64,000 nt of DNA, from positions 11,754 to 75,753 of the forward strand of contig JAHEIZ010000008.1 of NCBI GenBank assembly GCA_024639145.1, read 5' to 3'. The notes below the pieces were generated by a model that searched no databases, had not been told where the DNA came from, and saw only the letters and a program-made list of their open reading frames with translations. The position numbers and the translations under genes are program-made. The stretch comes from Actinomycetes bacterium (GTDB lineage Bacteria; Actinomycetota; Actinomycetes; S36-B12). The stretch's first letter is position 1; each line of letters begins with the position of its first letter. Shown here piece by piece: positions 12,091 to 46,771 of the stretch.

Positions 12091-13263
12091 ATGATCAATC
12101 GATGGCGGCCCAATGCGCCCGCCGTCCTGATCGGGTGGTGTGCCACACGCCTTCTGATCCTTCTTCAGGTACTCATCTGGGCCGATAACTTCCTGCCCGA
12201 CGTACGCCTGTACTCGACCTGGACGATTCTTCTCTCCAATCGCCAGTTCCCCGTCGGCGACGCCTACTGGCAGTACCCGCCTGGTGCCGGGGTTCTGTTC
12301 TGGCTCTCGAGATTCACCGGCCCCGATCCCGTCTTCGGCTTCGTCGTGCTGGCCTTCCTCGCCGACTTCGCTTTGGTCCTGCTGCTGATGAATGCCGGCC
12401 GCAGGGAATCCGGAGTGGGCCGTTTTAACGGCGCCTGGGCGTGGGTGATCGGCGGACTGGCTGTCGGCCCGGTCCTCGTGGCCCGCTTCGACATCTTCCC
12501 GACCGTATTCGCCGTGGCCGCTGTCCTGCTCGCCACCAAGCCAGTGCGCTCAGGCGTGATGGCTGCGGTCGGCGCACTGCTGAAGGTGTGGCCGATCCTC
12601 ATGCTCGCCGTGATCTCGCGGCGCCAGCTACCCAAGGCCGTGATCGCGGCGCTCGCCACCGGCGTCGTCGGCGTGCTCGCCATTAATGCCTGGGCAAGCG
12701 GCGGTATCAGCTTCCTGGGCGAGCAGAGCTCGCGCGGCCTGCAGATCGAGTCAGTCGGCTCCCTGCCCTACATGATCGCCGGGGCCTTGGGCTTCGAGCA
12801 GAACGTAGTGCTGCGCTATGGCGCCTATGAGTTCGTCATGCCTGGCGTCGGACTCATCGGCCTAGCCATCACAGTGATCGGCCTCGCCCTCTTCGCCACG
12901 ATTGCCGTACTGCGCCTGGCCGGGCGCCTCGAGCAGACTCCCCCGGGCGATATCGCACTCGCACTGATCCTCATTGCCGTAGCAACCAGCCGGGTGTTCT
13001 CCCCGCAGTACGACATCTGGATCGTCGGCCTCGGTGCGGCCTGCATTGCTGATCCCCGCACGCGACTGCGCAAGGTCGTCATTGCCGTGATCGTGATGTC
13101 AGCGGTGACTTCGATCATCTTCCCGTGGGCCTACGGCTCGCTCATGGAGACAGCGCCGTACGCCGTAGCACTGCAAGTGATTCGTATCGTGCTCCTGGTC
13201 GGATGCACCGTGGTCGCAGTGAAGTCCGTCGTGTTCACGCGCCACAAGGTCAACGCGGCTTAG
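12091..13263 (+). CDS. Polytopic membrane glycosyltransferase (GT87 / DUF2029, PimE/Rv2181-like mannosyltransferase family)
   Basis: 390 aa and very hydrophobic, with at least 9 TM segments and a conserved Asp in the first loop (FLPDVRLY). Synteny next to the fadD15-like gene. Confidence 0.6.
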   Translation: MINRWRPNAPAVLIGWCATRLLILLQVLIWADNFLPDVRLYSTWTILLSNRQFPVGDAYWQYPPGAGVLFWLSRFTGPDPVFGFVVLAFLADFALVLLLMNAGRRESGVGRFNGAWAWVIGGLAVGPVLVARFDIFPTVFAVAAVLLATKPVRSGVMAAVGALLKVWPILMLAVISRRQLPKAVIAALATGVVGVLAINAWASGGISFLGEQSSRGLQIESVGSLPYMIAGALGFEQNVVLRYGAYEFVMPGVGLIGLAITVIGLALFATIAVLRLAGRLEQTPPGDIALALILIAVATSRVFSPQYDIWIVGLGAACIADPRTRLRKVVIAVIVMSAVTSIIFPWAYGSLMETAPYAVALQVIRIVLLVGCTVVAVKSVVFTRHKVNAA

Positions 13264-14372
13264 AGAACGCGGCCGGCGCCGGTGAAGTAGCGGCGGTACC
13301 AGGCATCGTTGATCGACGTGATGATCACGCCTGCACGCGGGTTGGCCGCATGCACCATCCGGCCCCCACCGATATACATCGACACGTGGTGCACGCTGCC
13401 GCCGAAGAAGAAGAGCAGATCACCGGGCTGCAGCTGGCTCATTGGGATGTGCTTCGTGCGCGAGTACTGCGAGTAGCTCAGGTGAGGCAGCGACACACCG
13501 GCCTGGCGCCAGGCAGCGAGGGTCAGCCCCGAGCAGTCAAATGAGCTCGGGCCTGCCTGGGCAGCGACGTAGCGGTCGCCGACCTGCTGGAGGGCGTAGC
13601 GCACGGCAAGTGCAGCGCGCGTGCCGCCACTGAAGCCGCCGCCGGCACTGTGTGGACGCTTGATCTGACTGAGGGTTTTCTTCGCCTGCGATTGGGCAGC
13701 CTTGCGCTCGGCGGCCTGGATTGCCTCGAGGCGGCGGCGCTGCGCGGATTCAAGCCCGTTCAGCACCTTCTCGGCTGCAGCGAGTGCGGCATCGGCATCG
13801 CGCTTGTCGCCGGCCATCTGATTGCGCACCTTCTGCGCCGCTGCCTGCTTCTGAGCCACGGCCGCCTCGGTCTGTGCCAGGCGCAACCGAGCGGTCTGAG
13901 TTCGGCGCAAGGAGGCGCCCTGTGACTGAGCCACCTGATCGAGTGCGGAGGCCTGCGCGAGGAACTGGGTCGGGTTGTCTGCAAGCAGAACCTGCAGCGA
14001 GGTATCGACACCGCCGCTGGCGTAGGTGGCGCGGGCAAGTGCGTTGACCTGGCCTACGACTGCGGCCAGCGCCTTCTTCTGGCGATCACGACGGTCGTTG
14101 AGAACGCGCAGATTATTGGTGAGGTCGTTGAGGGTGCCCTGGGCCTCGTTGTAGCGCTCGGTCGCTGTCTCGGCCTTGGCCTGGAGATCTTGGACCTGGG
14201 TGCGCACCTGGTCGAGGCTCGGCGCCGCCTGGGCGGTGCCCGGAAGCAGGGTCACCATGAGAGCGGACGCGGCCAGGGCCACGACACCTGCACGCAGTGC
14301 ACGCAGTTTCGAGGAGGCAGGGCTCACGCCTGTCGTCCCTTTCGTCGCCGGATGGGGCTTGTTCGGTTCCAC
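13260..14372 (-). CDS. NlpC/P60 (C40) peptidoglycan endopeptidase with N-terminal coiled coil (RipC-like)
   Basis: 370 aa, GTG start. It has a signal peptide and a long Ala/Gln-rich coiled coil. The C-terminal catalytic module is FDCSGL...GDLLFF...HHVSMYIG. Confidence 0.85.
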   Translation of the reverse strand: MEPNKPHPATKGTTGVSPASSKLRALRAGVVALAASALMVTLLPGTAQAAPSLDQVRTQVQDLQAKAETATERYNEAQGTLNDLTNNLRVLNDRRDRQKKALAAVVGQVNALARATYASGGVDTSLQVLLADNPTQFLAQASALDQVAQSQGASLRRTQTARLRLAQTEAAVAQKQAAAQKVRNQMAGDKRDADAALAAAEKVLNGLESAQRRRLEAIQAAERKAAQSQAKKTLSQIKRPHSAGGGFSGGTRAALAVRYALQQVGDRYVAAQAGPSSFDCSGLTLAAWRQAGVSLPHLSYSQYSRTKHIPMSQLQPGDLLFFFGGSVHHVSMYIGGGRMVHAANPRAGVIITSINDAWYRRYFTGAGRVL

Positions 14373-34648: not shown

Positions 34649-34780
34649 GTAGTGGCCTTTCAGGTGAGGTAAGCCTTAGTCGGAGTGTATGCCAGGTCCA
34701 ACGCCTGCGCCCAGCGGCGTATTCCCCGAGTCGGCACGCGGGTCGGAGCGCGGTTTCGCGCGATAGGCAAGAATGAGCCA

Positions 34781-35950
34781 GTGACCTCACAGGTGGACCC
34801 GCAGCCGACCCCCCTGGCACTGCTGCTGCTCGGACGCGGAGCCGATGCGTCCAGCGAGCTCGGCGTCGAGTGCCCCGGAGCCCTGCCACCCGCCTCCGAC
34901 CCCGATCTCGTCGAGCGAGCCGAACGAGCCAAGGCCGCCCTCGGAGATCGTGTCTACATTCTCGGTCACCACTACCAGCGCGACGAAGTCATCGCCTTCG
35001 CCGACGTGACCGGCGACTCCTTCAAGCTGGCCCAGCAGGCCGCCGCGCATCCCGAAGCCGAGTACATCGTCTTCTGCGGTGTGCACTTCATGGCCGAGAG
35101 CGCCGACATCCTCACCGGCGACGCGCAGGCCGTCATCCTTCCCGACCTCGCTGCCGGGTGCTCAATGGCCGACATGGCGGCCATTGAGCAGGTCGAGCAG
35201 TGCTGGCGTGATCTCGAGGCAGCCGGGGTCGCCGATGTCACGATCCCGATCACGTACATGAACTCCACCGCGGCCATCAAGGCCTTCACCGGTCGACATG
35301 GTGGCTCGATCTGCACCTCGAGCAACGCGAAGGTATCGCTGGAGTGGGCATTCGCACGTGGCGAGAAAGTGCTCTTCATGCCCGATCAGCACCTCGGGCG
35401 CAATACCGCGGTGCGCGATCTCGGCATGTCACTCGATGACTGCGTCGTCTATAACCCTCGTCGCCCGAACGGCGGCCTCACCGTCGAGCAACTTCGCGAT
35501 GCGCGCATGATCCTGTGGCTCGGCCATTGCTCCGTGCACGGTCGCTTCACCGCCGAGTGCGTCGACGAAGTGCGCGAGCGCGTGCCCGGGGTCAGCGTCA
35601 TCGTGCATCCCGAGTGCTCGTACGAGGTCGTCGAGAAGGCTGACTTCGTCGGCTCTACTGAGCGCATCATCGCGATGATCGATGCGGCCCCGGCGGGCAG
35701 CAAGTGGGCCGTCGGCACTGAACTCAATCTCGTCAAGCGCCTGGCCGTGCGTCACCCCGACAAGGAGATCGTCTACCTCGATCGCACGGTCTGCTTCTGC
35801 TCGACCATGAATCGCATCGATCTCCCGCACCTCGTCTGGACTCTCGAGAACCTCGTAGCAGGCACTGTCATCAACCGCATCGAGGTTGATGCCGACACCC
35901 AGGAGTGGGCCCGCATCGCCCTCGATCGCATGCTCTCCCTCACCGCCTAG
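34781..35950 (+). CDS. nadA: Quinolinate synthase
   Basis: ILGHHYQRDEV, FCGVHFMAESADIL and HPEC motifs. The start is set at GTG 34781 because the upstream 32 codons of the track ORF are Arg-rich and implausible. Confidence 0.85.
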   Translation: MTSQVDPQPTPLALLLLGRGADASSELGVECPGALPPASDPDLVERAERAKAALGDRVYILGHHYQRDEVIAFADVTGDSFKLAQQAAAHPEAEYIVFCGVHFMAESADILTGDAQAVILPDLAAGCSMADMAAIEQVEQCWRDLEAAGVADVTIPITYMNSTAAIKAFTGRHGGSICTSSNAKVSLEWAFARGEKVLFMPDQHLGRNTAVRDLGMSLDDCVVYNPRRPNGGLTVEQLRDARMILWLGHCSVHGRFTAECVDEVRERVPGVSVIVHPECSYEVVEKADFVGSTERIIAMIDAAPAGSKWAVGTELNLVKRLAVRHPDKEIVYLDRTVCFCSTMNRIDLPHLVWTLENLVAGTVINRIEVDADTQEWARIALDRMLSLTA

Positions 35951-35979
35951 TCTCCCCGACCGCCGACTAGGCTTCCCTC

Positions 35980-36585
35980 ATGTTCGGACGAGGCAAGAGC
36001 GATGAGTCGCCGGCACCTATCCCTGCGACCGAGGAAACTCACGCAGGCAGCAAGGGCCGACCCACCCCTTCGCGCAAGGACGCCCAGCGTGCGCGTAAGC
36101 AGTTCCTCAAGACCCCCAATGACCCCAAGGCCGCGAAGGCTGCCCAGCGCGAAGCCGATCGCACCGCGAAGCTACGCGCGCGCGAGGGCATGGCCGCCGG
36201 CGATGAGAAGTACCTGCCCGCGCGTGACCGCGGCCCGGCCAAGGCCTTCACCCGTGACTTCGTCGACGCACGCTTCACTCTCGCCGAGTACTTCATCTTC
36301 ATTGCGGTGGCCGTGCTGCTGCTCGGCTTCGTCAAGAACCAGGCACTGTCGACCTTCATCTCGACCGGCTTCTTCGCCATCACGGCGCTCATCGCCCTCG
36401 ACTCGATCATCTTGGTGATCCAGCTCAATAAGCGCGCGAAGGAAGCCTTCCCGAACGAAGCCGATCGCAAGGGCATCACGCTCTACGCGCTCCTGCGCAC
36501 GCTGCAGCTTCGCCGCCTTCGCCTGCCTCCGCCCCGCGTGCGTCGCGGCGGCAAGCCAGTACTGCCCAAGGGCTCGAAGAAGTAG
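35980..36585 (+). CDS. DUF3043-family membrane protein
   Basis: 201 aa. Lys/Arg-rich N-terminus (GRPTPSRKDAQRARK) followed by two TM helices. Positioned as Rv2206 is, upstream of cobT. Confidence 0.7.
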   Translation: MFGRGKSDESPAPIPATEETHAGSKGRPTPSRKDAQRARKQFLKTPNDPKAAKAAQREADRTAKLRAREGMAAGDEKYLPARDRGPAKAFTRDFVDARFTLAEYFIFIAVAVLLLGFVKNQALSTFISTGFFAITALIALDSIILVIQLNKRAKEAFPNEADRKGITLYALLRTLQLRRLRLPPPRVRRGGKPVLPKGSKK

Positions 36586-36834: not shown

Positions 36835-37002
36835 GGTTCAGGAACAACTGAATCGACGTATTCGAGATCCAGGGGAAGTCCGGTGTGAATCCGGCGCTGT
36901 CCCGCAACCGTGATCCCTCACTGAGGGCGAGTCGGAGCACCTGGCGAGTACGAGCGGCTCTATCCGTCGAGGTAACGGGACGAGTCAGGTCATTCCTGAA
37001 TT
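36835..37002 (+). promoter_or_regulatory. Cobalamin (adenosylcobalamin-type) riboswitch aptamer
   Basis: Core AGGGGAAGUCCGGUGUGAAUCCGGCGCUGUCCCGCAACCGUGA (36871-36913) and B12 box GAGUCGGAGCACCUGGC (36929-36945). The P1 candidate pairs ttcaggaa (36837-36844) with ttcctgaa (36993-37000). Confidence 0.9.
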
Positions 37003-37088: not shown

Positions 37089-38159
37089 ATGTCACGCACC
37101 ACTCGCACCATCGCCGCCAGTGCGGCACTCGCGATCGCCGCATTCGGCCTCGCCTCGCCTGCTCACGCGAACCACGCACCGGGCACCACCGGCCTCTACG
37201 GCACCGCCGATCCCGGCTACGACGGCGTCTACCGTCAGTCGCTCGCGATCATTGGGCTCACGTCCAACGGCGTGAAGCCGTCTCCGGCCGCGATCGGGTG
37301 GCTCATCAGCCAGCAGTGCAAGGACGGCAGCTTCCAGGAGTTCCGCGCCGACACCACGAAGCCATGCGACACGGTCGATGCAGTCAACGGCAAGGGTCCG
37401 GACTCCAATGCCACGTCGCTTGCCGTGCTCGCACTGATGTCCATCGACAACACCAATCTCGCCTCGAATACCGTGATGAATGCCGTCGTGAAGGCAGCGA
37501 GCTCGGCGGGCCTGTGGCTCCGAAAGAACCAGCACTCCGACGGCGGCTGGGCGTACTACGCCGGATCGCCCTCCGATTCAAGTTCGACCGGGCTGGCCCT
37601 GGCAGCGCTCAGCACCCAGGCACCCAATCGCCAGCAGCCGAATATCGTCAAGGGCAGCAAGTTCCTCGCCTCGCTCATCATCGCGTGCGGCTCCACCGAC
37701 GGCGGCGCACTCGTGTACCAGAAGGGCAGCAAGGCAGACGGGCTCTCAAGCGCACAGGGGTTGTACGGGCTCGTCGGCAGTGTTCCGGTCAGAGCCGCAG
37801 GCAAGCTGGGCCCGACACCGAAGTGCGCGGGCAATCCGGCCAACAAGATTGCCAGCCACCTGTCTTCGAAGTTGCTGAGCAACGGCACCCTTGCTTCGGC
37901 ATTCGGCGATGGCCCTGACTACACCGCAACCGCAACGGCTGTCGTGGATCTCTCTGCCGCAGGCGTTGCCAAGGCCGCGGTCGCGAAGGCACTTGCCGCA
38001 CTGAAGTCGAATGCCGCGAGCTACGCGACTCCGGCCGCAGGCGCCAATCCCGCTGCGCTCGGACTCCTACTGAGCGCCGCGAAGGCCACCGGCTCGAATC
38101 CGAAGGCCTTCGGCGGAGTCGATCTGGTCTCGGCACTCGTCAACAGCGAGCACAAGTAA
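37089..38159 (+). CDS. Secreted alpha/alpha-toroid protein (prenyltransferase / squalene-oxidase repeat family)
   Basis: 356 aa with a Sec signal ending SPAHA. Repeated motifs of the type WLxxQQxxDGSF / WLRKNQHSDGGW, with interleaved TSLAVLAL / TGLALAAL helices. Confidence 0.7.
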   Translation: MSRTTRTIAASAALAIAAFGLASPAHANHAPGTTGLYGTADPGYDGVYRQSLAIIGLTSNGVKPSPAAIGWLISQQCKDGSFQEFRADTTKPCDTVDAVNGKGPDSNATSLAVLALMSIDNTNLASNTVMNAVVKAASSAGLWLRKNQHSDGGWAYYAGSPSDSSSTGLALAALSTQAPNRQQPNIVKGSKFLASLIIACGSTDGGALVYQKGSKADGLSSAQGLYGLVGSVPVRAAGKLGPTPKCAGNPANKIASHLSSKLLSNGTLASAFGDGPDYTATATAVVDLSAAGVAKAAVAKALAALKSNAASYATPAAGANPAALGLLLSAAKATGSNPKAFGGVDLVSALVNSEHK

Positions 38160-38821
38160 TGCGCACGGCTCGCGCGGCAGCAGCGCTCATCGGCATCGCG
38201 ATTCTCGCGCTGACGGCGATCGCGCCTGCCGCGCGAGCCGAGTCCGCCTATCGCTATTGGACCTACTGGCAGGGCAATGCCGCGTCGTGGCAATTCGGAA
38301 CCCAAGGTCCCGCCACGAGTAACCCAGCCGACGGCGCCGTCGAAGGCTGGCGCTTCGCCGTCTCCGGGGCAGCCGGCAGCACGCAAAGCCAGCCATCGAT
38401 GAGCCCCGCCACAGCCTTCGCAGACCTCTGCGGCTCGACTCCTCCACTCTCGGGCAAGAAGCGAATCGCACTCGTGGTCGATCCGGGCTACGCATCGGAG
38501 GCACCGGACGGCGAGGACCCCATCGGGGCGGTGAGCACCTGCGTCGTCGCCGATGAGGATGCGAGCGGTTACGACATCCTGCGATCCCAGCTCACCGTGC
38601 GAGTCGAAGGCGGCCTGGTGTGTGGCATCGGCGGCTTCCCGGCACACGAGTGCGCGCCCGTGATCGAGGTCAGCGAGGAGTCTGCGAAGCCAGCCAGCCA
38701 GGCCGTGAACCAGAGACCCAGCAAGGATTCCCTCACTTCCTTCGGCTCCATCTCGCTGACCGTTCTTGTCGTGCTCTTCGGCATCGGACTCTCCATTGCC
38801 CTGTGGTGGAGGCGCAAGTGA
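38159..38821 (+). CDS. Secreted, C-terminally membrane-anchored protein (Trp-rich YWTYW motif; resembles the actinobacterial family often annotated SCO2322-like)
   Basis: 220 aa. Signal peptide ending PAARA, N-terminal YRYWTYWQGNAASWQFG...DGAVEGWRF, and a C-terminal TM helix followed by WWRRK. TAATG junction with the upstream gene. Confidence 0.6.
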   Translation: MRTARAAAALIGIAILALTAIAPAARAESAYRYWTYWQGNAASWQFGTQGPATSNPADGAVEGWRFAVSGAAGSTQSQPSMSPATAFADLCGSTPPLSGKKRIALVVDPGYASEAPDGEDPIGAVSTCVVADEDASGYDILRSQLTVRVEGGLVCGIGGFPAHECAPVIEVSEESAKPASQAVNQRPSKDSLTSFGSISLTVLVVLFGIGLSIALWWRRK

Positions 38822-39957
38822 CCGATCAGCGATTCGCCCTGGGTGCCGCCGCGATTCCGCGGTGGCTTCACCCGGGTGCGTGGTGGGCATGGGCGCTGGG
38901 CCTGGCCGCTGCGGCAAGTCGCACCACGAATCCCCTGCTCCTGATTCTCATCGTGTGCTGTGCGGCCATCGTCGTGTCAGCACGCAAGCCCGATGCGCCG
39001 TGGGCGCGCTCATTCGGCTTCTTCCTGCGCCTCGGCGTCGTGATCATCATCGTGCGCGTGCTCGCGCAGATTATTTTCGGCGCCTCGCTCGGCACGACCG
39101 TCATCGTCAATGCACCCGGTATCGCACTTCCCGACTGGTTCGCAGGCGTCCGCCTCGGCGGTGAGATCACCCTGGAGAGCCTGCTCTTCGCGCTCTTCGA
39201 CGGCCTGCGGCTTGCGGCGATCATCGCCTGCGTGGGCGCGGCGAATTCCCTCGCGTCGCCAAGTCGACTTCTCAAGTCGGTTCCGGCAGCGTTGTACGAA
39301 GTGGGAGTCAGCGTCGTTGTCGCACTCACATTCGCTCCGCAACTCGTGAGTGACGTCTCGCGAGTCAGCACCGCACGTCGACTTCGCGGCCGGACCACTC
39401 ATGGCATCCGCGCGATCGCCGGGTCGACCGTTCCCGTCTTCGAGGGCGCACTCGAGCGCTCCGTGCTGCTGGCGGCCGCCATGGACTCCCGCGGCTACGG
39501 TCGCACGGCCGGCATCAGCTCTTCGGTGCGTCGAGTCGCTTCGGGCTTTCTTCTGCTCGGCCTCGTTGCCGCGTGCATCGGCACGTACGCGATGGTGTCC
39601 GCGGGTTCCCCTGCGCTTCTCGGCCTGCCCTTGCTGGCCGTCGGCATCGCGGTGAGCATCCTCGGCATCACGATGGCCGCACGTCGATCGGTCCGCACCC
39701 GTTACCGCCCTGATCCCTGGTGGCTGGCCGAGTGGCTGGTGGCCGCGGCCGGCCTGTGCACCGCCGCCGTATTTACGTGGGCTACCTGGTCCCATCTGGC
39801 GGGCATCGACACCCCCACCGACCCGGCCCGATGGCCGCTGCTTCCGCTGATCCCGGTTCTTGCACTCGTGCTCGCAGCCTCGCCGGCCATCATCGCGCCG
39901 CGACTTCCGCAGGCACTTCGACCCGTGCACGTGCGCGAGGAAGCGGCGGTCGCATGA
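38818..39957 (+). CDS. ECF transporter transmembrane (T) component, CbiQ/EcfT family
   Basis: The GTG start overlaps the upstream stop (GTGA). Polytopic, with a coupling-helix ARxxRG motif (TARRLRGR). The 66 upstream codons of the track ORF are rejected. Confidence 0.8.
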   Translation: MTDQRFALGAAAIPRWLHPGAWWAWALGLAAAASRTTNPLLLILIVCCAAIVVSARKPDAPWARSFGFFLRLGVVIIIVRVLAQIIFGASLGTTVIVNAPGIALPDWFAGVRLGGEITLESLLFALFDGLRLAAIIACVGAANSLASPSRLLKSVPAALYEVGVSVVVALTFAPQLVSDVSRVSTARRLRGRTTHGIRAIAGSTVPVFEGALERSVLLAAAMDSRGYGRTAGISSSVRRVASGFLLLGLVAACIGTYAMVSAGSPALLGLPLLAVGIAVSILGITMAARRSVRTRYRPDPWWLAEWLVAAAGLCTAAVFTWATWSHLAGIDTPTDPARWPLLPLIPVLALVLAASPAIIAPRLPQALRPVHVREEAAVA

Positions 39958-41576
39958 TCGAGTTCGAGAACGTCTCCATCACCTACGCGGGCGCCGACTC
40001 ACCGGTGCTCGTGAATGCCTCGGTGTCCATTCCCGAGGGCGAACTCGTTCTCGTAGTCGGACGCACGGGCAGCGGCAAAACGACATTCCTTCGGGCGATC
40101 AACGGACTCGTGCCTCACTTCACCGGGGGAACGCTCTCAGGTCGGGTCACCATTGACGGTCGCGATACGGCCACGCACCCGCCGCGCGAGCTTGCCGATC
40201 TGGTCGGCATCGTGCCGCAGGATCCGATGAGCGGTTTCGTCACCGACACCGTCGAGGATGAACTCGCGTACGGAATGGAATGCCTGGGGATCGCACCCGA
40301 GGTCATGCGACGCCGCGTGGAGGAGACCCTTGACCTTCTCGGCCTCGCCGAGCTTCGCCATCGCGCACTTCTCTCACTGTCGGGCGGCCAGCGACAGCGG
40401 GTTGCCATCGGTGCGGTACTCACCTCGCATCCGAAGGTTCTCGTTCTCGACGAACCCACCTCCGCACTAGACCCGGGTGCCGCCGAGGAGGTTCTCGCAG
40501 CACTGCAACGACTCGTGCACGATCTCGGCATCACGGTCGTGCTTGCCGAGCATCGGCTCGAACGAGTGGTGCAGTACGCCGATCGCATGATCGTGATCCC
40601 GGGCGCCGGCGAGCCACTCGTGTACGGCACTCCGGCCGATGTCATGCGACTTGCTCCCATTGCGCCGCCCGTCGTGGAACTCGGACGACTGGCCGGCTGG
40701 AGCCCGCTCCCGCTGTCGGTGAGGGATGCACGACGCGCCGCGGGACCGCTGCGCGATCTGCTGATCGGGCGCACGCCTCCCCTGCGCGTGGTTGATGGCG
40801 GCCAGTCGCGCGAGGAACTCGCAGTCACCGAGAACCTCGTCGTGCGCTACGGCACCTTCACTGCACTGCGCGGCGTCACTACGTCGATTCGCCGCGGCGA
40901 GATCGTGGCACTCATGGGCCGAAATGGTGCAGGCAAGTCGACCCTGCTCTCCTCCCTCGTAGGCCTGCGCAGCACCACGACAGGGGCGGTGTCGACCAGC
41001 GGCCACGACCCGCGCACCCTGAAGCCACGCGAACTCGTGCACTCGGTGGGCCTGGTGCCGCAGGATCCAGGCGATCTCCTCGAGGCCACGAGCGTGGCCG
41101 ATGAATGCCGCGCCGCCGACCACGACGCCGAGGCGGAGCCCGGCACTACCCGAGCGCTACTCGCCCTGCTCGCACCCGACGTGCATGACGGCACTCACCC
41201 GCGCGATCTCTCCGAGGGGCAGCGGCTGCTTCTGGCACTCGCGGTGGTGCTCGCTGCGCGACCACCGCTGCTTCTTCTTGATGAGCCGACGCGCGGGCTC
41301 GACTACCCGACGAAGTCACGGCTCGTCACGGTTCTCAGCGATCTTGCCGACGCCGGCCACGGTGTCGTGCTCGCCACGCATGATGTCGAGTTGGCCGCAG
41401 AGGTTGCCACCCGGGTAATGGTCATCGCTGACGGGGAGATCGTCGCCGACGGACCCACGTCTGCAGTGCTCGTCTCGTCACCGATGTTCGCGCCGCAGGT
41501 GGCCAAGGTGCTCGCCCCGGAGCCGTGGCTCACCGTCACCGACGTGGCGTCTGCCCTCGACGGCGAGGCCGTCTGA
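39954..41576 (+). CDS. Fused duplicated ECF/ABC ATPase (EcfA-EcfA')
   Basis: 540 aa from ATG 39954 (ATGA overlap). Two Walker A sites (GRTGSGKTT, GRNGAGKST), two signature motifs (LSGGQRQR, LSEGQRLL) and two Walker B sites (LVLDEPT, LLLDEPT). Confidence 0.9.
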   Translation: MIEFENVSITYAGADSPVLVNASVSIPEGELVLVVGRTGSGKTTFLRAINGLVPHFTGGTLSGRVTIDGRDTATHPPRELADLVGIVPQDPMSGFVTDTVEDELAYGMECLGIAPEVMRRRVEETLDLLGLAELRHRALLSLSGGQRQRVAIGAVLTSHPKVLVLDEPTSALDPGAAEEVLAALQRLVHDLGITVVLAEHRLERVVQYADRMIVIPGAGEPLVYGTPADVMRLAPIAPPVVELGRLAGWSPLPLSVRDARRAAGPLRDLLIGRTPPLRVVDGGQSREELAVTENLVVRYGTFTALRGVTTSIRRGEIVALMGRNGAGKSTLLSSLVGLRSTTTGAVSTSGHDPRTLKPRELVHSVGLVPQDPGDLLEATSVADECRAADHDAEAEPGTTRALLALLAPDVHDGTHPRDLSEGQRLLLALAVVLAARPPLLLLDEPTRGLDYPTKSRLVTVLSDLADAGHGVVLATHDVELAAEVATRVMVIADGEIVADGPTSAVLVSSPMFAPQVAKVLAPEPWLTVTDVASALDGEAV

Positions 41577-41577
41577 C

Positions 41578-42396
41578 ATGAGCGGGCCACAGGTGCACGC
41601 GATGAGACTCGGCACGAGATCACGCATCGCCATCGCGTTGACCTCGCTCATCGGGATCATCGCCTTCGCGTGGCCTTTGCTCGCCTCCCCGGAGTCCGCA
41701 GTGGTCGCGCATTCGAATGACGCGCCGTGGCTCTTCGCGATCATCGTGCCGCTGCTCATGCTCGTGCTGCTCGCCGAGCTCTCCGACGGCGGCATGGACG
41801 CGAAGTCGATCGCACTTCTCGGCGTGATGGCTGCCGTGATCGCGGCCCTGCGCCCGCTGGGCGGCGGGATCGCCGGACTAGAACCGATCTGGATGGTGTT
41901 GATCCTCGGCGGTCGCGCCCTCGGTCCGGGATTCGGCTTCTCCCTCGGCGCGATCTCCCTGTTCGCGTCCGCACTTCTGACCGGCGGAGTCGGGCCATGG
42001 CTGCCCTTCCAGATGCTCGGTGCGGCATGGGTCGGGCTGGGTGCCGGTCTCCTTCCGCGCGCCACGGGCAAGCGCGAGCTCGCACTTCTCGCCGGTTACG
42101 GGGCTGTCGTCAGCCTCCTGTACGGGATGCTGCTCAACCTCTGGTTCTGGCCCTTCGTCTCCGGCCTGCCCGATCAGATTGCGTTCGCTGCCGGCGCTCC
42201 GCTGGGCGAGAACTTCCTGCACTGGTTCAGGTTCACGATTGTCACCAGCCTCGGTTACGACATCCCGCGAGCGATTCTCACAGTTGTGCTGATCCTCATC
42301 GCGGGAAAGCCCGTGCTCCTCGCCTTGCGCAGGGTCTCGCGCAAGGCGGCCTTCGAACCCGCGATCACCTTCGTCCCCGGGACTACGAGCGCATGA
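41578..42396 (+). CDS. ECF transporter substrate-specific (S) component, unusually long
   Basis: 272 aa, hydrophobic and Gly/Ala-rich, with about 6-7 TM segments. It sits directly after the A-A' gene (TGAcATG). The assignment rests on context and topology only. Confidence 0.6.
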   Translation: MSGPQVHAMRLGTRSRIAIALTSLIGIIAFAWPLLASPESAVVAHSNDAPWLFAIIVPLLMLVLLAELSDGGMDAKSIALLGVMAAVIAALRPLGGGIAGLEPIWMVLILGGRALGPGFGFSLGAISLFASALLTGGVGPWLPFQMLGAAWVGLGAGLLPRATGKRELALLAGYGAVVSLLYGMLLNLWFWPFVSGLPDQIAFAAGAPLGENFLHWFRFTIVTSLGYDIPRAILTVVLILIAGKPVLLALRRVSRKAAFEPAITFVPGTTSA

Positions 42397-43775
42397 GAGT
42401 CCGCCTGCTCGGTACCGGCTCGGCCGATGGCTGGCCGAATCCTTTCTGCGAGTGCCGTTCATGCGAGGAAGAGCGCACAGTCGGCCGGCTACGGATGCCG
42501 ACAGCTGCGCTCGTCGACGACATCCTGCTCATCGACAGCGGACCGACCGCGCCGTACAGCGCATCGCTCGGCGGTATCTCCCTTCGCCGAGTCGAGCATC
42601 TCGTTCTCACTCACGGGCACCCCGATCACCTGGCCCCGTCCATCCTGCTGTGGCGCGAATGGGTCTCCGGCCTCACAGTGCTCCACGTGTGGGGCCCGTC
42701 GATGGCGATCGATCTCTGCCGTGACTGGGTTGGCCCCGATTCTCCGGTCGAATTCCATGTGATTGCAGCCGGCGATTGCGTCACTCTCGCGACTGCCCAC
42801 GACAGTTACGAGCTTCGAGCTCTCGAAGCCAATCATGATCCACGCCGGATTGACTCGATCGCGGGCGAAGCACTGCTCTACGACCTTCAGTCACCCAGGG
42901 GCGAGCGACTTCTCTACGCCACCGACACCGGGCCGTTCACCCCGGCAATGCTCGAATCGATGAGAGGGCGTCAATACGACGTCGTGTTGATTGACGAGAG
43001 CTTCGGCGACAAGACGGACCATGGCACCGGTCACTTCGATCTCGATAGCCTGCCTGTGACACTGCACGCTGCACGCGAGTGCGCTGCTACCTCTGATCAC
43101 ACACGTGTGATCGCCGTGCACTTGAGCCATCACAATCCGCCGACCGACGAGCTGCGCGCGCGACTGCACGGAATGGGAGCCGAGCTCATGGACGATCTCG
43201 CAGTGATCGACACCGCTGCATCGCGCAGCCGTCACCTCATCACCGGCGGAGCGCGCTCGGGCAAGTCCTCGCACGCCGAGCGACTGGCCGACCGGCACCC
43301 GAAGGTCGTCTATGTCGCCACCGGCGGAGAGCGCCCTAACGATCTCGAATGGGCACAGCGCATCGCCGCTCACCGCGAGCGCCGGCCGTCCCACTGGACG
43401 ACCATCGAGACAGCCGACCTCGAGACGACCCTGGCCACCGCACCCGCCGATGCCGTGGTCCTCGTCGACTGCATCGGGCTCTGGCTCACGGCACAGCTCG
43501 ACTCGGCCGACGCCTGGGGTCGCGAGACTGATTCCGACATGCGTGCGCAGGTCGAGTCCGCGATCACTGCCTTGATCGAGGCCGTGCGTGATTGCCCCGC
43601 CTCGGTCATCCTCGTCACGAATGAGGTCGGCATGGATCTCGTGCCCCCGCACGCGGGCGGCCGGCTCTTCCGCGACCTGCTCGGCATCACCAACTCACGA
43701 CTGGCCGACGCCTGCGACCGTGTCACCCTCGTCGTCGCGGGCCGCGCCCTCGACCTGCCCAGGAGCTCACCATGA
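42393..43775 (+). CDS. cobU: Fusion protein: N-terminal PhnP-like metallo-beta-lactamase-fold phosphodiesterase domain + C-terminal adenosylcobinamide kinase / adenosylcobinamide-phosphate guanylyltransferase (CobU/CobP)
   Basis: 460 aa from ATG 42393 (ATGA overlap). The N-domain (to about 43227) has LGTGSADGWPNPFCECRSC and THGHPDH. The C-domain has ITGGARSGKS, IAAHRERRPSHW (guanylyl-His region) and VTNEVGMDLVP. Confidence 0.85.
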   Translation: MRVRLLGTGSADGWPNPFCECRSCEEERTVGRLRMPTAALVDDILLIDSGPTAPYSASLGGISLRRVEHLVLTHGHPDHLAPSILLWREWVSGLTVLHVWGPSMAIDLCRDWVGPDSPVEFHVIAAGDCVTLATAHDSYELRALEANHDPRRIDSIAGEALLYDLQSPRGERLLYATDTGPFTPAMLESMRGRQYDVVLIDESFGDKTDHGTGHFDLDSLPVTLHAARECAATSDHTRVIAVHLSHHNPPTDELRARLHGMGAELMDDLAVIDTAASRSRHLITGGARSGKSSHAERLADRHPKVVYVATGGERPNDLEWAQRIAAHRERRPSHWTTIETADLETTLATAPADAVVLVDCIGLWLTAQLDSADAWGRETDSDMRAQVESAITALIEAVRDCPASVILVTNEVGMDLVPPHAGGRLFRDLLGITNSRLADACDRVTLVVAGRALDLPRSSP

Positions 43776-44848
43776 CCGATCTCGCCTCTCTCATCGACCT
43801 GATCGGTGCCCCGAGCGCCGTTGCCGCCGACGAGGCGCGCGCACGACAGGGAATCCTCACCAAGCCGACCGGCGCACTCGGCCGGCTCGAGGAGCTATCG
43901 ATTTGGGTGTGCTCTGTGCAAGGTGCCTGCCCGCCGCGGGTCTTCGCGCGACCGCGCGTGGTGATCTTCGCCGGAGATCACGGTGTCGCTCGAACGGCGC
44001 AGACCTCCGCTTATCCCCCCGAGGTCACGGCGCAGATGGTCCTGAACTTCGTGCATGGCGGAGCCGCCGTCAACGTGCTGGCACGACAGGCCGGTGCGAG
44101 CGTGCGCGTTGTCGACGTGAGCGTCGATGCCGATCCCGACTACGCGCTCTCCATCGCGCCCGAGGTCGTCGCCGATCGCATCCGTCGCGGCTCGGGCTCG
44201 ATCGATCGGGAGGACGCGATGACACGTGCCGAGACCGAGGCGGCCTTCGCACTCGGTCGTCGCATTGCCGACGAGGAGATCGACTCGGGTGCCGACCTGC
44301 TCATTCCTGGGGACATGGGCATCGGCAACACCACCCCCGCCGCTGCCCTCATCGGTTTGCTCGCGAATGCCGATGCGGCAACGGTCACCGGCAAGGGCAC
44401 CGGCATCGATGACACGACCTGGATGCGCAAGTGCGCAGCCGTGCGCGATGCGATGCGCCGCGGCTCCGAGCACAAGGGCGATCCGCTCGCGCTTCTCACT
44501 GCCATCGGCTCCCCCGACTTCGCTGCGGCCACCGGCTTCCTGCTGCAGTCCGCAGCACGCGGCGTACCCGTGATCCTCGACGGCACGATCAGCTCTGCAT
44601 GCGCACTCGTCGCCGATCGCATCAGCTACCGCGCGAAGGCCTGGTGGCTGGCCGGGCATCGCTCCACCGAGCCCGCGCAGTCCATTGCGCTCGATCGCCT
44701 CGATCTCGTGCCCGTCGTCGACTACGGCATGCGGCTGGGCGAGGGCACGGGCGCGCTGCTCGCCCTGCAGATCGTGCAGTCGGCCACCGCGACACTGCGC
44801 GAGATGGCGACCTTCGGCGAGGCCGGCGTGAGCGATCGCGATGCCTGA
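43772..44848 (+). CDS. cobT: Nicotinate-nucleotide--dimethylbenzimidazole phosphoribosyltransferase
   Basis: 358 aa. Contains LTKPTGALGRLEEL, GDHGV and GDMGIGNTT motifs. Confidence 0.9.
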   Translation: MTDLASLIDLIGAPSAVAADEARARQGILTKPTGALGRLEELSIWVCSVQGACPPRVFARPRVVIFAGDHGVARTAQTSAYPPEVTAQMVLNFVHGGAAVNVLARQAGASVRVVDVSVDADPDYALSIAPEVVADRIRRGSGSIDREDAMTRAETEAAFALGRRIADEEIDSGADLLIPGDMGIGNTTPAAALIGLLANADAATVTGKGTGIDDTTWMRKCAAVRDAMRRGSEHKGDPLALLTAIGSPDFAAATGFLLQSAARGVPVILDGTISSACALVADRISYRAKAWWLAGHRSTEPAQSIALDRLDLVPVVDYGMRLGEGTGALLALQIVQSATATLREMATFGEAGVSDRDA

Positions 44849-45587
44849 TGCCCTGCGCCTGGCGATCGGCACGCTGACCCGACTACCGGTTCCCGCGCCG
44901 CGGCAGGTCGATCGCCGCACCGCGGGCATCGCGATGAGCCAGTCGCCCTTGGTCGCGCTCGTGCTCGCTGTCGTCTGCGGACTCCCGCTGCTCATCACGC
45001 CCGATCGACCGCTGCTCGCACTGGTGCTCAGCATCTGCGCCTTCGCCCTGCTCGCCTGGGCCACGCGCGCACTCCACCTCGACGGGCTCGCCGACACCGC
45101 GGACGCACTCGGCAGCGGCAGGCCGGCGGCGACGGCGCTCGAGATCGCGCGCAAGTCGGATATCGGCCCCTTCGGCGTCATCGTGCTGATGCTCGCCCTC
45201 CTGATCGACATCGCCGCGGTGGCCTCACTACCCGAGGGCCGCGATGCCTATCTCGCCTTCGTGCTCGCGATCGTCATCAGCAGAGTCGCGCTCACCCTCG
45301 CCTGCACGCGAATCTGGCCCGCTGCCCGCACTGATGGCCTCGGCGCCGTGGTGGCCGGGTCGGTACCTGTCGCCATCGCCGCTGCGTGGACGATCCTCGG
45401 TCTCGCGCTCGCCTGGTGGCTCCTCGGCGCAGCAGCCGTTCTCGCGGCAGCGCTCGGGCTCCTGGCAGGAATCCTCGTGCTCGTGATCGCGCGTCGCCGA
45501 CTGGGCGGAGTCACCGGTGACGTCCTGGGCGCAACGATCGAGATCAGCCTGACCGCCGCCTTGCTGGCACTCGCGCTCCTTGCCTAA
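44841..45587 (+). CDS. cobS: Adenosylcobinamide-GDP ribazoletransferase (cobalamin synthase)
   Basis: 248 aa polytopic protein. Contains LHLDGLADTADAL and GGVTGDVLGA motifs. 8-nt overlap with cobT. Confidence 0.9.
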   Translation: MPDALRLAIGTLTRLPVPAPRQVDRRTAGIAMSQSPLVALVLAVVCGLPLLITPDRPLLALVLSICAFALLAWATRALHLDGLADTADALGSGRPAATALEIARKSDIGPFGVIVLMLALLIDIAAVASLPEGRDAYLAFVLAIVISRVALTLACTRIWPAARTDGLGAVVAGSVPVAIAAAWTILGLALAWWLLGAAAVLAAALGLLAGILVLVIARRRLGGVTGDVLGATIEISLTAALLALALLA

Positions 45588-45625: not shown

Positions 45626-46771
45626 ATGAGTAGGCCACTCGAGTCCGTCGCGCATGCGCACCGACTCGCGAAGCGCCGCCTGCCCGGCTCCGTCTACTCC
45701 TTCATCGAGGGCGGCAATGAGGCACGCATCACCGTGCGCGCGAATGTCGAGGCCTTCGAGGAGATCGGGTTCCGCCCGCGCGTCTCGAGCACTCAGTCGG
45801 CGCCGGATCCGCGCACCACGGTGCTCGGACGCGAGATCGCCATGCCGCTCATCACGACTCCTGCAGGCTTCATCCGCATCGCGAATCCGGCCGGTGAGCT
45901 CGCGGTCGCGCGGGCAGCAGCACGCGCCGGCATCCCGACCGGCGTGAGCATCCTTGCGAGCACCGCCATCGAGGAGATCACCGCGGTCAATCCCGATACC
46001 TGGTTCCAGCTCTACATGATCGGCGGTCGCGAGGGCACCGCTGCCGCGATCGAGCGAGCGCGCCAGGCAGGCGTCCGCGTGCTGATCGTCACCGTCGACC
46101 TGGCTGCCGGAACCGGCGGCAGCGACACCCGCAAGGCAGCGATGCCTCCCGGTCGCGTCAATCTCGCCAGCGCCGTGCGCCACTCGCCCGAGATGGTGAC
46201 TCATCCGCGCTGGGCGCTGAGCTTCTTGCGCGGCGGTCTCGAGCTGACCGCTCCGAACGTGCCCGGGGTCGACGGCCGCTCCATGACAATTGCCGAGGGC
46301 AGCGCCGCACTGCGCGAGCATCCGCCGACGTGGGACGACATCGCCTTCATCCGCGGGCTCTGGGATGGCCCGCTCGTCGTGAAGGGCATCGTCACCGGTG
46401 ATGACGCTCGTCGTGCGGCTGACCTCGGCGTCGACGCGGTGTCGGTCTCGAATCACGGAGGCAATGGCCTCGACGGCGCACCGGCCACGATCCGCGCCCT
46501 GCCCGAGGTCGTCGCGGCAGTCGGCGATCGCATCGAGGTGCTGATGGACGGCGGCGTACGCCGTGGCGGCGATGTCGTGAAAGCGGTGTCACTCGGAGCG
46601 CGCGCCGTGCTGATCGGTCGCCCGTACATCTGGGCACTCGCGGCCGGCGGCGAGCAGGGTGTCGACGAGATGCTCGCGCTCTTCCGCAAGGGCATCTCGG
46701 GAACGATGGCCCTGCTCGATCGACGCAGTGTCAGCGAGCTCGATGCGAGTGCGCTGATCCTGCGGAGGTAG
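45626..46771 (+). CDS. FMN-dependent alpha-hydroxy-acid dehydrogenase/oxidase family protein
   Basis: 381 aa. TIM-barrel FMN family signatures (SNHGG, GGVRRGGDV, IGRPY). Confidence 0.8.
   Translation: MSRPLESVAHAHRLAKRRLPGSVYSFIEGGNEARITVRANVEAFEEIGFRPRVSSTQSAPDPRTTVLGREIAMPLITTPAGFIRIANPAGELAVARAAARAGIPTGVSILASTAIEEITAVNPDTWFQLYMIGGREGTAAAIERARQAGVRVLIVTVDLAAGTGGSDTRKAAMPPGRVNLASAVRHSPEMVTHPRWALSFLRGGLELTAPNVPGVDGRSMTIAEGSAALREHPPTWDDIAFIRGLWDGPLVVKGIVTGDDARRAADLGVDAVSVSNHGGNGLDGAPATIRALPEVVAAVGDRIEVLMDGGVRRGGDVVKAVSLGARAVLIGRPYIWALAAGGEQGVDEMLALFRKGISGTMALLDRRSVSELDASALILRR

Follow-up and report, generated by a model that had tools for sequence, protein, structure and literature searches.

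We analysed a 64,000-nucleotide stretch (hereafter, the window) of contig JAHEIZ010000008.1 from an Actinomycetes bacterium of the GTDB lineage S36-B12. A gene on its forward strand (42393-43775) encodes a protein in which a metallo-beta-lactamase (MBL) domain is fused to CobU, an enzyme of cobamide nucleotide-loop assembly. This gene is the sixth of eight in a translationally coupled run, in which starts and stops overlap or abut, and an adenosylcobalamin (AdoCbl) riboswitch lies 100 nt 5' of the run (Table 1). No convincing terminator was found inside the run. Judged from the riboswitch, the gene identities, the overlapping genes and the lack of a terminator, the eight genes are an operon that serves to import corrinoids and assemble the nucleotide loop, and it is repressed by B12 through the riboswitch. 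The substrate of the S component of the energy-coupling factor (ECF) transporter is presumed to be a corrinoid because of the riboswitch and the cob genes. The same gene order was found in the homologous loci that we labelled L003, L005, L006, L009, L013, L017, L022, L024, L029, L030 and L046, and cobalamin-clan riboswitches head homologous operons in L005 (3857-3977), L009 (4286-4376), L013 (3651-3810) and L046 (4403-4500). The initial annotation of the window, which had pointed out the fusion gene, mentioned neither the riboswitch nor the upstream ECF importer.

Table 1. Features of the riboswitch-headed run of genes that contains the MBL-CobU fusion (positions in the window).
Feature	Position	Strand	Evidence
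AdoCbl (B12) riboswitch aptamer	36847..36989	+	Rfam RF01482, 62 bits (gathering score 50), E 5.4e-9
SCO2321-family membrane protein with alpha/alpha-toroid (terpene-cyclase-like) repeats, transporter accessory	37089..38159	+	NF053823, E 4.8e-65, under cut-off
SCO2322-family protein, secreted or membrane-anchored	38159..38821	+	NF040672, 143 bits (cut-off 85); Pfam PF28005
ECF transporter T component, CbiQ family	38818..39957	+	Pfam CbiQ, E 2.2e-8
ECF transporter ATPase, 540 aa, two ATP-binding cassette (ABC) domains per chain	39954..41576	+	ECF_ATPase_1 and ECF_ATPase_2, two stretches each, E 1e-86
ECF transporter S component, presumed corrinoid-binding	41578..42396	+	Pfam ECF_trnsprt, E 9.5e-8, 32.7 bits (cut-off 30.7)
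Fusion N-domain (aa 1-278), predicted PhnP-family MBL-fold binuclear metallo-hydrolase with Cys3-His structural zinc site	42393..43226	+	Pfam, Foldseek, ligand alignment
Fusion C-domain (aa 279-460), CobU, predicted adenosylcobinamide kinase / adenosylcobinamide-phosphate guanylyltransferase	43227..43775	+	Pfam, NF004469, PDB 1c9k
CobT, nicotinate-nucleotide:dimethylbenzimidazole phosphoribosyltransferase	43772..44848	+	NF000996, 443.6 bits (cut-off 306); GIGNTT and GEGTG motifs
CobS, adenosylcobinamide-GDP ribazoletransferase (cobamide synthase)	44841..45587	+	TIGR00317, 112 bits (cut-off 110); Pfam CobS

Translation of the fusion gene gave one 460-aa open reading frame (ORF) without internal stops. 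Its ATG shares the sequence ATGA (42393-42396) with the stop of the upstream gene, and because of this overlap the ATG at 42393 was taken as the natural start. An alternative GTG start at 41727 was rejected, as it crosses the upstream gene in a different frame. Every motif quoted in the initial annotation was located in the protein: LGTGSADGWPNPFCECRSC at residues 5-24, HGHPDH at 74-79 and GGARSGKS at 285-292, together with the ligand-bearing motifs ANHD (H148), ATDTG (D178), HFDLD (H214, D216) and HLSHH (H243, H246), and AAHRERRP, which holds H327, in the CobU half. The Pfam matches were Lactamase_B_2, covering residues 46-243 (E 9.9e-15), and CobU, covering residues 282-455 (E 5.1e-55). In the predicted structure, the last MBL strand (271-273) and the first CobU strand (280-285) are separated by a linker of about 6 residues, which agrees with the domain border near residue 278/279 that had been proposed. 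Proteins with this pair of domains make up more than 100 clusters (90% identity), every one of them from Actinomycetota, and are also encoded in cultured genomes. An assembly or frameshift artefact is therefore excluded, and the protein is confirmed as a real fusion. Its public label is only "bifunctional adenosylcobinamide kinase/guanylyltransferase", and the MBL domain is not mentioned.

The N-domain scored 55.1 bits against PF12706 (Lactamase_B_2; cut-off 27). When 112 full-length fusions were aligned, the residues of the structural site (C19, C21, C24 and H246) and of the binuclear site (H74, H76, D78, H79, H148, D178 and H243) were invariant, and so were H214 and D216. The counterparts of the site residues and of H214 in E. 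coli PhnP are C21/C23/C26/H225, H76/H78/D80/H81, D164, H200 and H222. The best match of this half in a PDB sequence search was PhnP (3g1p, E 3e-6). An AlphaFold2 model built from the 112-sequence alignment had a mean predicted local distance difference test (pLDDT) score of 92.4 and a predicted template modelling (pTM) score of 0.71. When its N-half was compared with the PDB by Foldseek, PhnP 3g1p (E 2e-16, TM-score on target 0.76-0.78) and the "diphosphatase from the PhnP family" 6b9v (TM-score on target 0.81) were recovered. Other matches were PqqB (rank 3), RNase Z, YhfI, Apyc1, yeast PDE1, the arylsulfatase 8gyg (rank 28) and a Brucella MBL protein crystallised with GMP or AMP (3md7, 3qh8). 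No PDB structure in the Foldseek output spanned both domains. From the PDB titles and general knowledge, we take the close structural relatives to be mostly phosphodiester- or diphosphate-cleaving enzymes; the exceptions are PqqB, a hydroxylase, and arylsulfatase 8gyg.

The profile score, the binuclear ligands, the zinc site and the fold all place the N-domain in the PhnP-like MBL clade (COG1235 / Pfam Lactamase_B_2). By its sequence and modelled fold, it is a PhnP-family MBL-fold metallo-hydrolase with an intact active site. The invariant metal ligands and the equivalent of PhnP His200 form the signature expected of a working active site. Thus the initial assignment as a PhnP-like MBL held, with PhnP 3g1p, PqqB and 6b9v as the nearest structures and all site ligands invariant. 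A disrupted metal site, which the same annotation had listed as evidence that would speak against its proposal, was not observed, and the ligands are all intact. A true PhnP function was considered and rejected. The score of the N-domain against the PhnP equivalog TIGR03307 was 43.5 bits, far under the cut-off of 272.25, and no phn (carbon-phosphorus lyase) genes were found among the annotated genes of the window.

The C-domain scored 186 bits against PF02283 (CobU; cut-off 27) over profile positions 2-168 of 168, and 181.2 bits against the CobU equivalog NF004469 (cut-off 161). Salmonella CobU (1c9k) was matched in the PDB sequence search (E 1.2e-32), and the Foldseek matches of the C-half were CobU structures. 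The P-loop residues G285, G286, R288, G290, K291 and S292 and also H327 were invariant in the 112 fusions, and the AAHRERRP segment pairs with QHHKDGRP of Salmonella CobU in the alignment. By these profiles and motifs, the C-domain is an intact, standard CobU, as had been annotated from the P-loop and the guanylyl-His region. That it acts as adenosylcobinamide (AdoCbi) kinase and AdoCbi-phosphate guanylyltransferase is predicted by homology and by the presence of cobT and cobS downstream.

The distribution of the fusion was studied by database searches. A search with the N-domain only returned 1705 proteins at E <= 1e-5, of which the best 120 were examined. Both domains were present in 115 of these 120, mostly in proteins of 440-486 aa, and the other 5 were short or partial proteins without a CobU domain. 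The HxHxDH motif was found in 120/120, CxCxxC in 117/120 and the P-loop in 116/120 of the same set. In a scan of one genome per species, the fusion occurred in Mycolicibacter spp., Prescottella equi, Nocardioides iriomotensis, Frankia and Parafrankia, and further in Cumulibacter, Angustibacter and metagenome-assembled genomes (MAGs) of Nanopelagicales (L005 and L006 among them); all carriers were Actinomycetota. The MBL half was conserved equally well as the CobU half in tblastn (54%/54% identity for L005 and 49%/46% for L017). At E <= 1e-30, a profile search over 1.84 billion representative proteins gave 463 clusters; those that scored best were fusions of 430-530 aa, and a second tier of weaker matches comprised stand-alone proteins about 275 aa long. 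These second-tier MBL relatives (150-190 bits) were set aside as uninformative paralogues, and their gene contexts are unrelated to B12. The sole alternative fusion partner of the MBL subfamily in the 463 clusters was a CobT-like domain. Fusion partners unrelated to B12 had been named at the outset as a result that would speak against a role in this pathway; the other partner found is B12-related. A 611-aa protein of Gordonia sinesedis (P0412) is a CobU-CobT fusion (PF02283 and PF02277), which shows that Actinomycetota also have further combinations of fused nucleotide-loop enzymes.

The operon lies within a core block that is conserved in actinobacteria (34685-36585, +, and flanks). This block comprises qcr and cta genes, asnB, erpA, nadA and DUF3043, and then gcvT, pepA, lpdA, sucB, lipB and lipA. 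An aldo-keto reductase gene also belongs to the conserved slot, between DUF3043 and gcvT. The content of the slot varies by lineage, with different subsets of MBL, CobU, CobT and CobS. In M. tuberculosis the slot is occupied by cobT-cobS (Rv2207-Rv2208). Stand-alone MBL proteins of Blastococcus (P0134, P0138, P0181, P0205, P0208, P0212, P0220, P0223 and several JGI entries) are publicly named "cobalamin biosynthesis protein CobU" or "adenosylcobinamide kinase/..." and have no CobU domain. Their names were apparently transferred from the fusion proteins.

Several neighbours of the fusion gene were also characterised. The product of the first gene gave weak Pfam matches to SQHop_cyclase_N and Prenyltrans and squalene-cyclase-like sequence matches in the PDB. 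SCO2321-family and SCO2322-family proteins always accompany this ECF importer, and the pair might be a surface corrinoid-capture module. Its pairing of an alpha/alpha barrel with a small domain might be likened to that of transcobalamin. A gene for an MftD/LldD-like, flavin mononucleotide (FMN)-dependent alpha-hydroxyacid dehydrogenase (45626-46771, +), which scored under the equivalog cut-offs, begins 38 nt past cobS. No terminator was detected between the two genes, and the dehydrogenase gene may be co-transcribed with the operon; it was absent from this position in the other examined loci. A truncated CobT-like paralogue (255-260 aa) lies directly 3' of cobS in L003 (7731-8498), L009 (13293-14075) and L046 (~13250-14016), and also in L002, L021 and L033. 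It is without the N-terminal third of CobT and the GIGNTT motif, and has DE[ET]G in place of GEG[ST]G.

Taken together, the N-domain is likely a hydrolase that works in cobamide nucleotide-loop metabolism. In the textbook loop pathway, the finished cobamide or its 5'-phosphate is the sole simple phosphodiester, and AdoCbi-GDP is a diphosphate diester. The reading that we rank first is that the N-domain hydrolyses the phosphodiester of the nucleotide loop and delivers the product to CobU, and we give it a probability of about 0.35. It is placed first because of the chemistry of the family, the precedent of CbiR and the fit to consecutive steps. The ECF transporter and the two accessory surface proteins would import corrinoids, and the riboswitch would limit the work of the whole operon to AdoCbl shortage. 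The N-domain would then open the loop phosphodiester of cobamides with an unsuitable lower ligand, for example pseudocobalamin, to give an alpha-riboside and cobinamide-phosphate (or cobinamide). A cut at the ribose-3'-O-P bond would yield cobinamide-phosphate, on which the CobU guanylyltransferase acts directly, and a cut on the opposite side of the phosphodiester would yield cobinamide, the substrate of the CobU kinase. Because either cleavage product is a CobU substrate, the fusion would join consecutive steps. The fused CobU would turn the product into AdoCbi-GDP, and CobT and CobS would put in the preferred base. In a narrower form, which we regard as doubtful and slightly less probable than loop cleavage itself, CbiZ and CbiR would be joined by the MBL domain as a third class of remodelling enzyme with no structural relation to either; as a PhnP-type phosphodiesterase, it would open foreign cobamides and give cobinamide(-phosphate) straight to its fused CobU.

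The initial annotation had suggested that the fused domain is either a loop cleaver or a substitute for CobC. The PhnP-type site and the operon context agree with this suggestion, while either activity stays a prediction, the first one being the better placed of the two. Loop cleavage is strengthened because the operon, with its riboswitch and ECF importer, is one for salvage. Some cultured Nanopelagicales (Planktophila) are reported to obtain cobalamin solely via salvage from cobinamide (PMC12817590). CbiR-type cleavage gives cobinamide-phosphate, a direct CobU substrate, and CbiR was likewise discovered by a gene-neighbourhood argument (PMC7733943).

Several observations weigh against loop cleavage coupled to CobU. 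Throughout the genus Blastococcus, a lone MBL domain (260-286 aa) occupies the core slot; an aldo-keto reductase comes next, and cobU, cobT and cobS are not there. These proteins share 65-81% identity within the genus and their metal ligands are intact. This shows that the MBL domain is kept without a covalently linked CobU, which weakens the idea of an obligatory coupling. The stand-alone protein is still compatible with a cobamide role, because Blastococcus carries a BluB/CobT2 homologue (PMC10038948). In two clusters with 49% mutual identity, P0268 (L085:8001-9758) and P0281 (L086:130-1968), the MBL domain is joined to a CobT-like domain in which, by alignment, neither GIGNTT nor the catalytic GEG[ST]G is retained. 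Both proteins keep the MBL ligands, and the otherwise invariant D12 and H210 are altered. No cobU or cobS was found at L085, the only one of the two loci with enough flank. Here the MBL domain is maintained beside a decayed CobT-like domain and without a linked CobU. The two proteins are probably decayed derivatives of the MBL-CobU/CobT arrangement. The MBL-CobT fusion was therefore downgraded as an independent link to the pathway, since its CobT-like part is without catalytic motifs and its locus without cobU and cobS.

Other loci point in the same direction. The fusion gene is solitary and without the transporter in Mycolicibacter, Prescottella and Frankia, and no riboswitch was found beside solitary fusion genes or stand-alone genes. 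Conversely, ECF-cobU-cobT-cobS operons with a short CobU and without MBL exist (L055, L057, L039). In de novo B12 makers, a fused loop cleaver could also risk a futile cycle unless it is selective for the lower ligand. The pTM of only 0.71 for the fusion model counts on the same side.

One different explanation is that the MBL domain replaces CobC and removes the 5'-phosphate from adenosylcobalamin-5'-phosphate or alpha-ribazole-5'-phosphate. The CobC step is the sole loop step without a gene in an otherwise complete uptake-to-CobS operon. As had been noted initially, CobC, CbiZ and CbiR are all missing from the operon, although CobU, CobT and CobS are there. This was extended to the whole window, which encodes no histidine phosphatase (CobC), CbiZ or AP-endonuclease-2 (CbiR-type) protein; the negative holds for these 64 kb only. 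No His_Phos_1 domain or RHG motif was found within the fusion protein itself. An RHG motif or Pfam His_Phos_1 domain within 10 kb was found in 0 of about 35 MBL-CobU loci and in 4 of about 42 short-CobU loci, a difference that is not significant and that covers loci rather than whole genomes. L039, L057 and L055, whose operons are without the MBL domain, were checked for a gene of the CobC type at the corresponding position, but the gaps hold a SCO2322-like protein or a small unrelated ORF and no phosphatase. The entire operon is kept in Nanopelagicales MAGs, which suggests a needed step given the small genomes of this order (<1.5 Mb; PMC12817590). The MBL domain is also joined to a CobT-like domain, and alpha-ribazole-phosphate is the CobT product; however, this partner in the rare fusions is the one without GEG[ST]G and GIGNTT. 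Most close structural relatives act on phosphodiesters or diphosphates rather than phosphomonoesters, and we know of no dedicated phosphomonoesterase with the MBL fold, which counts against this role. Besides, the CobC step comes after CobS and not after CobU, so the fusion would not link consecutive steps. Finally, M. tuberculosis already has a predicted alpha-ribazole phosphatase, Rv2228c (PMC12713380). We consider CobC replacement unlikely.

The housekeeping alternative, in which a phosphodiesterase for cyclic nucleotides, 2',3'-cyclic phosphates or RNA ends was fused to CobU by chance at a conserved chromosomal slot of an early actinomycete and has stayed fused since, is about equally unlikely. 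It would explain why the MBL gene sits in a conserved core slot and stays alone in Blastococcus without cob genes there, why intact ligands persist beside a decayed CobT-like domain, why the solitary fusion genes of Mycolicibacter and Prescottella have neither cob neighbours nor a riboswitch, and why the stand-alone paralogues that come next in similarity have unrelated gene neighbourhoods. However, a functionless linkage is unlikely to last over several orders while the linker stays short and fixed and both halves are equally conserved. The only other partner among the 463 clusters is again a cobamide-pathway domain, a B12 riboswitch controls the gene in many genomes, and Blastococcus is not free of B12 genes, as its BluB/CobT2 shows (PMC10038948). 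A less probable proposal is another loop-associated diphosphatase or phosphodiesterase, acting on alpha-dimethylbenzimidazole adenine dinucleotide (alpha-DAD), on pyrophosphate (PPi) released by CobU or on AdoCbi-GDP. Its attraction is that 6b9v, a PhnP-family "diphosphatase", is among the top structural matches (TM-score on target 0.81), and that links to both CobU and a CobT-like domain would suit a nucleotide-handling helper. Cleavage of alpha-DAD would give alpha-ribazole-phosphate and AMP. The Brucella homologue binds GMP and AMP at its metal site (3md7, 3qh8; PMC3169410), and the alpha-DAD bypass requires a cleaving enzyme yet to be identified (PMC12713380). An alpha-DAD enzyme would, however, be expected on CobT, and in nearly all cases the domain is instead on CobU; for the other two substrates, an inorganic pyrophosphatase is already present in cells, and hydrolysis of AdoCbi-GDP would reverse the CobU reaction. 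A non-catalytic MBL domain that serves CobU as a scaffold, oligomerisation or ligand-binding module is very improbable: the pTM and the short linker fit a packed accessory domain, but the metal ligands and the general-acid His equivalent are invariant in the 112 fusions and the stand-alone Blastococcus proteins.

In conclusion, the fusion is a CobU with an added, uncharacterised hydrolase-type domain, which is not CbiR, CbiZ or CobC by sequence or fold, and it probably carries out an undescribed step in the recycling of B12-like cofactors. Cobamide remodelling determines the B12 analogues that a microbe can use, and it also shapes how vitamins are exchanged in lakes, soils and the gut. For CobC, the final pathway step, many genomes have no identified gene. 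To our knowledge, the only dedicated loop-opening enzymes are CbiZ and CbiR. CbiZ is annotated in just 9.1% of surveyed bacterial species (PMC6461909). Whichever activity the MBL domain has, it would fill a pathway gap for a major phylum and improve the prediction of B12 production and dependence from genomes. If it were a third remodelling class, a riboswitch-controlled import-cleave-rebuild module would exist in widespread Actinomycetota, including the dominant freshwater Nanopelagicales, and foreign cobamides such as cyanobacterial pseudocobalamin would be opened by the MBL domain. Cultured carriers of the fusion exist (Prescottella equi, Nocardioides, Mycolicibacter, Frankia).

Literature searches on the fusion, the PhnP family, cobamide remodelling, Nanopelagicales and Blastococcus, whose coverage did not extend to the 2024 review by Villa and Escalante-Semerena, found no paper that describes CobU fused to an MBL domain or an enzyme of the MBL type that acts on cobamides. 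Among the known systems, CobU/CobP (Salmonella CobU, 1c9k/1cbu) corresponds to the full length of the C-domain, with 39-43% identity to solved structures and the same P-loop and guanylyl-His region. Canonical CobU is a single domain of about 180 aa, whereas the fusion adds an N-terminal part of 278 aa. CobU assembles as a trimer and PhnP as a dimer. CobC of Salmonella and E. coli is a phosphomonoesterase of the histidine-phosphatase superfamily with an RHG motif, whereas the fused domain is a binuclear-metal MBL; the step of CobC lacks a gene in this operon and is thus a candidate for non-homologous replacement. The N-domain resembles PhnP, the E. coli phosphoribosyl 1,2-cyclic phosphate phosphodiesterase (3g1p/3p2u; TIGR03307), in the MBL fold, the CxCxxC and His zinc site, the HxHxDH/His/Asp/His binuclear ligands and the His200 equivalent, and PhnP is its top PDB match by sequence and structure. 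The substrate of PhnP is an alpha-configured ribose phosphate ester. The two differ in that they share 24% identity, that the N-domain is fused to CobU, that phn genes are absent from the window, and that W14, R28, R34, D48, W90, W112, D154, Y175, F204 and H210, invariant in the subfamily, are not in PhnP. 6b9v and the Brucella proteins 3md7/3qh8 have the same PhnP-like subfold with nucleotide or phosphate at the binuclear site (TM-score on target 0.73-0.82), but are stand-alone proteins of about 20% identity whose physiological substrates, where known, are unrelated to B12.

The two loop-opening enzymes provide the closest functional comparison. CbiZ, the adenosylcobinamide amidohydrolase, also opens the loop for remodelling, but it cuts an amide and not a phosphoester, belongs to an unrelated family and is absent from the window; it is present in both B12 producers and salvagers (PMC6461909). 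CbiR of Akkermansia muciniphila (PMC7733943) is, like the fusion, part of a salvage locus that also includes cobU, cobT and cobS; it is a metal-dependent hydrolase, and its product cobinamide-phosphate is a CobU substrate, as proposed here for the MBL domain. In contrast to the fused domain, CbiR is a separate AP endonuclease 2 superfamily protein, and its activity is demonstrated where that of the fusion is predicted. No match to PF01261 was found in the fusion, and its fold is that of an MBL. The AP endonuclease 2 superfamily has a triosephosphate isomerase (TIM) barrel fold. These differences lower the chance that the domain is a CbiR, but not the chance that it works like one. If it cleaves the loop, the MBL domain would tentatively be an MBL-fold functional analogue of CbiR that is unrelated to it.

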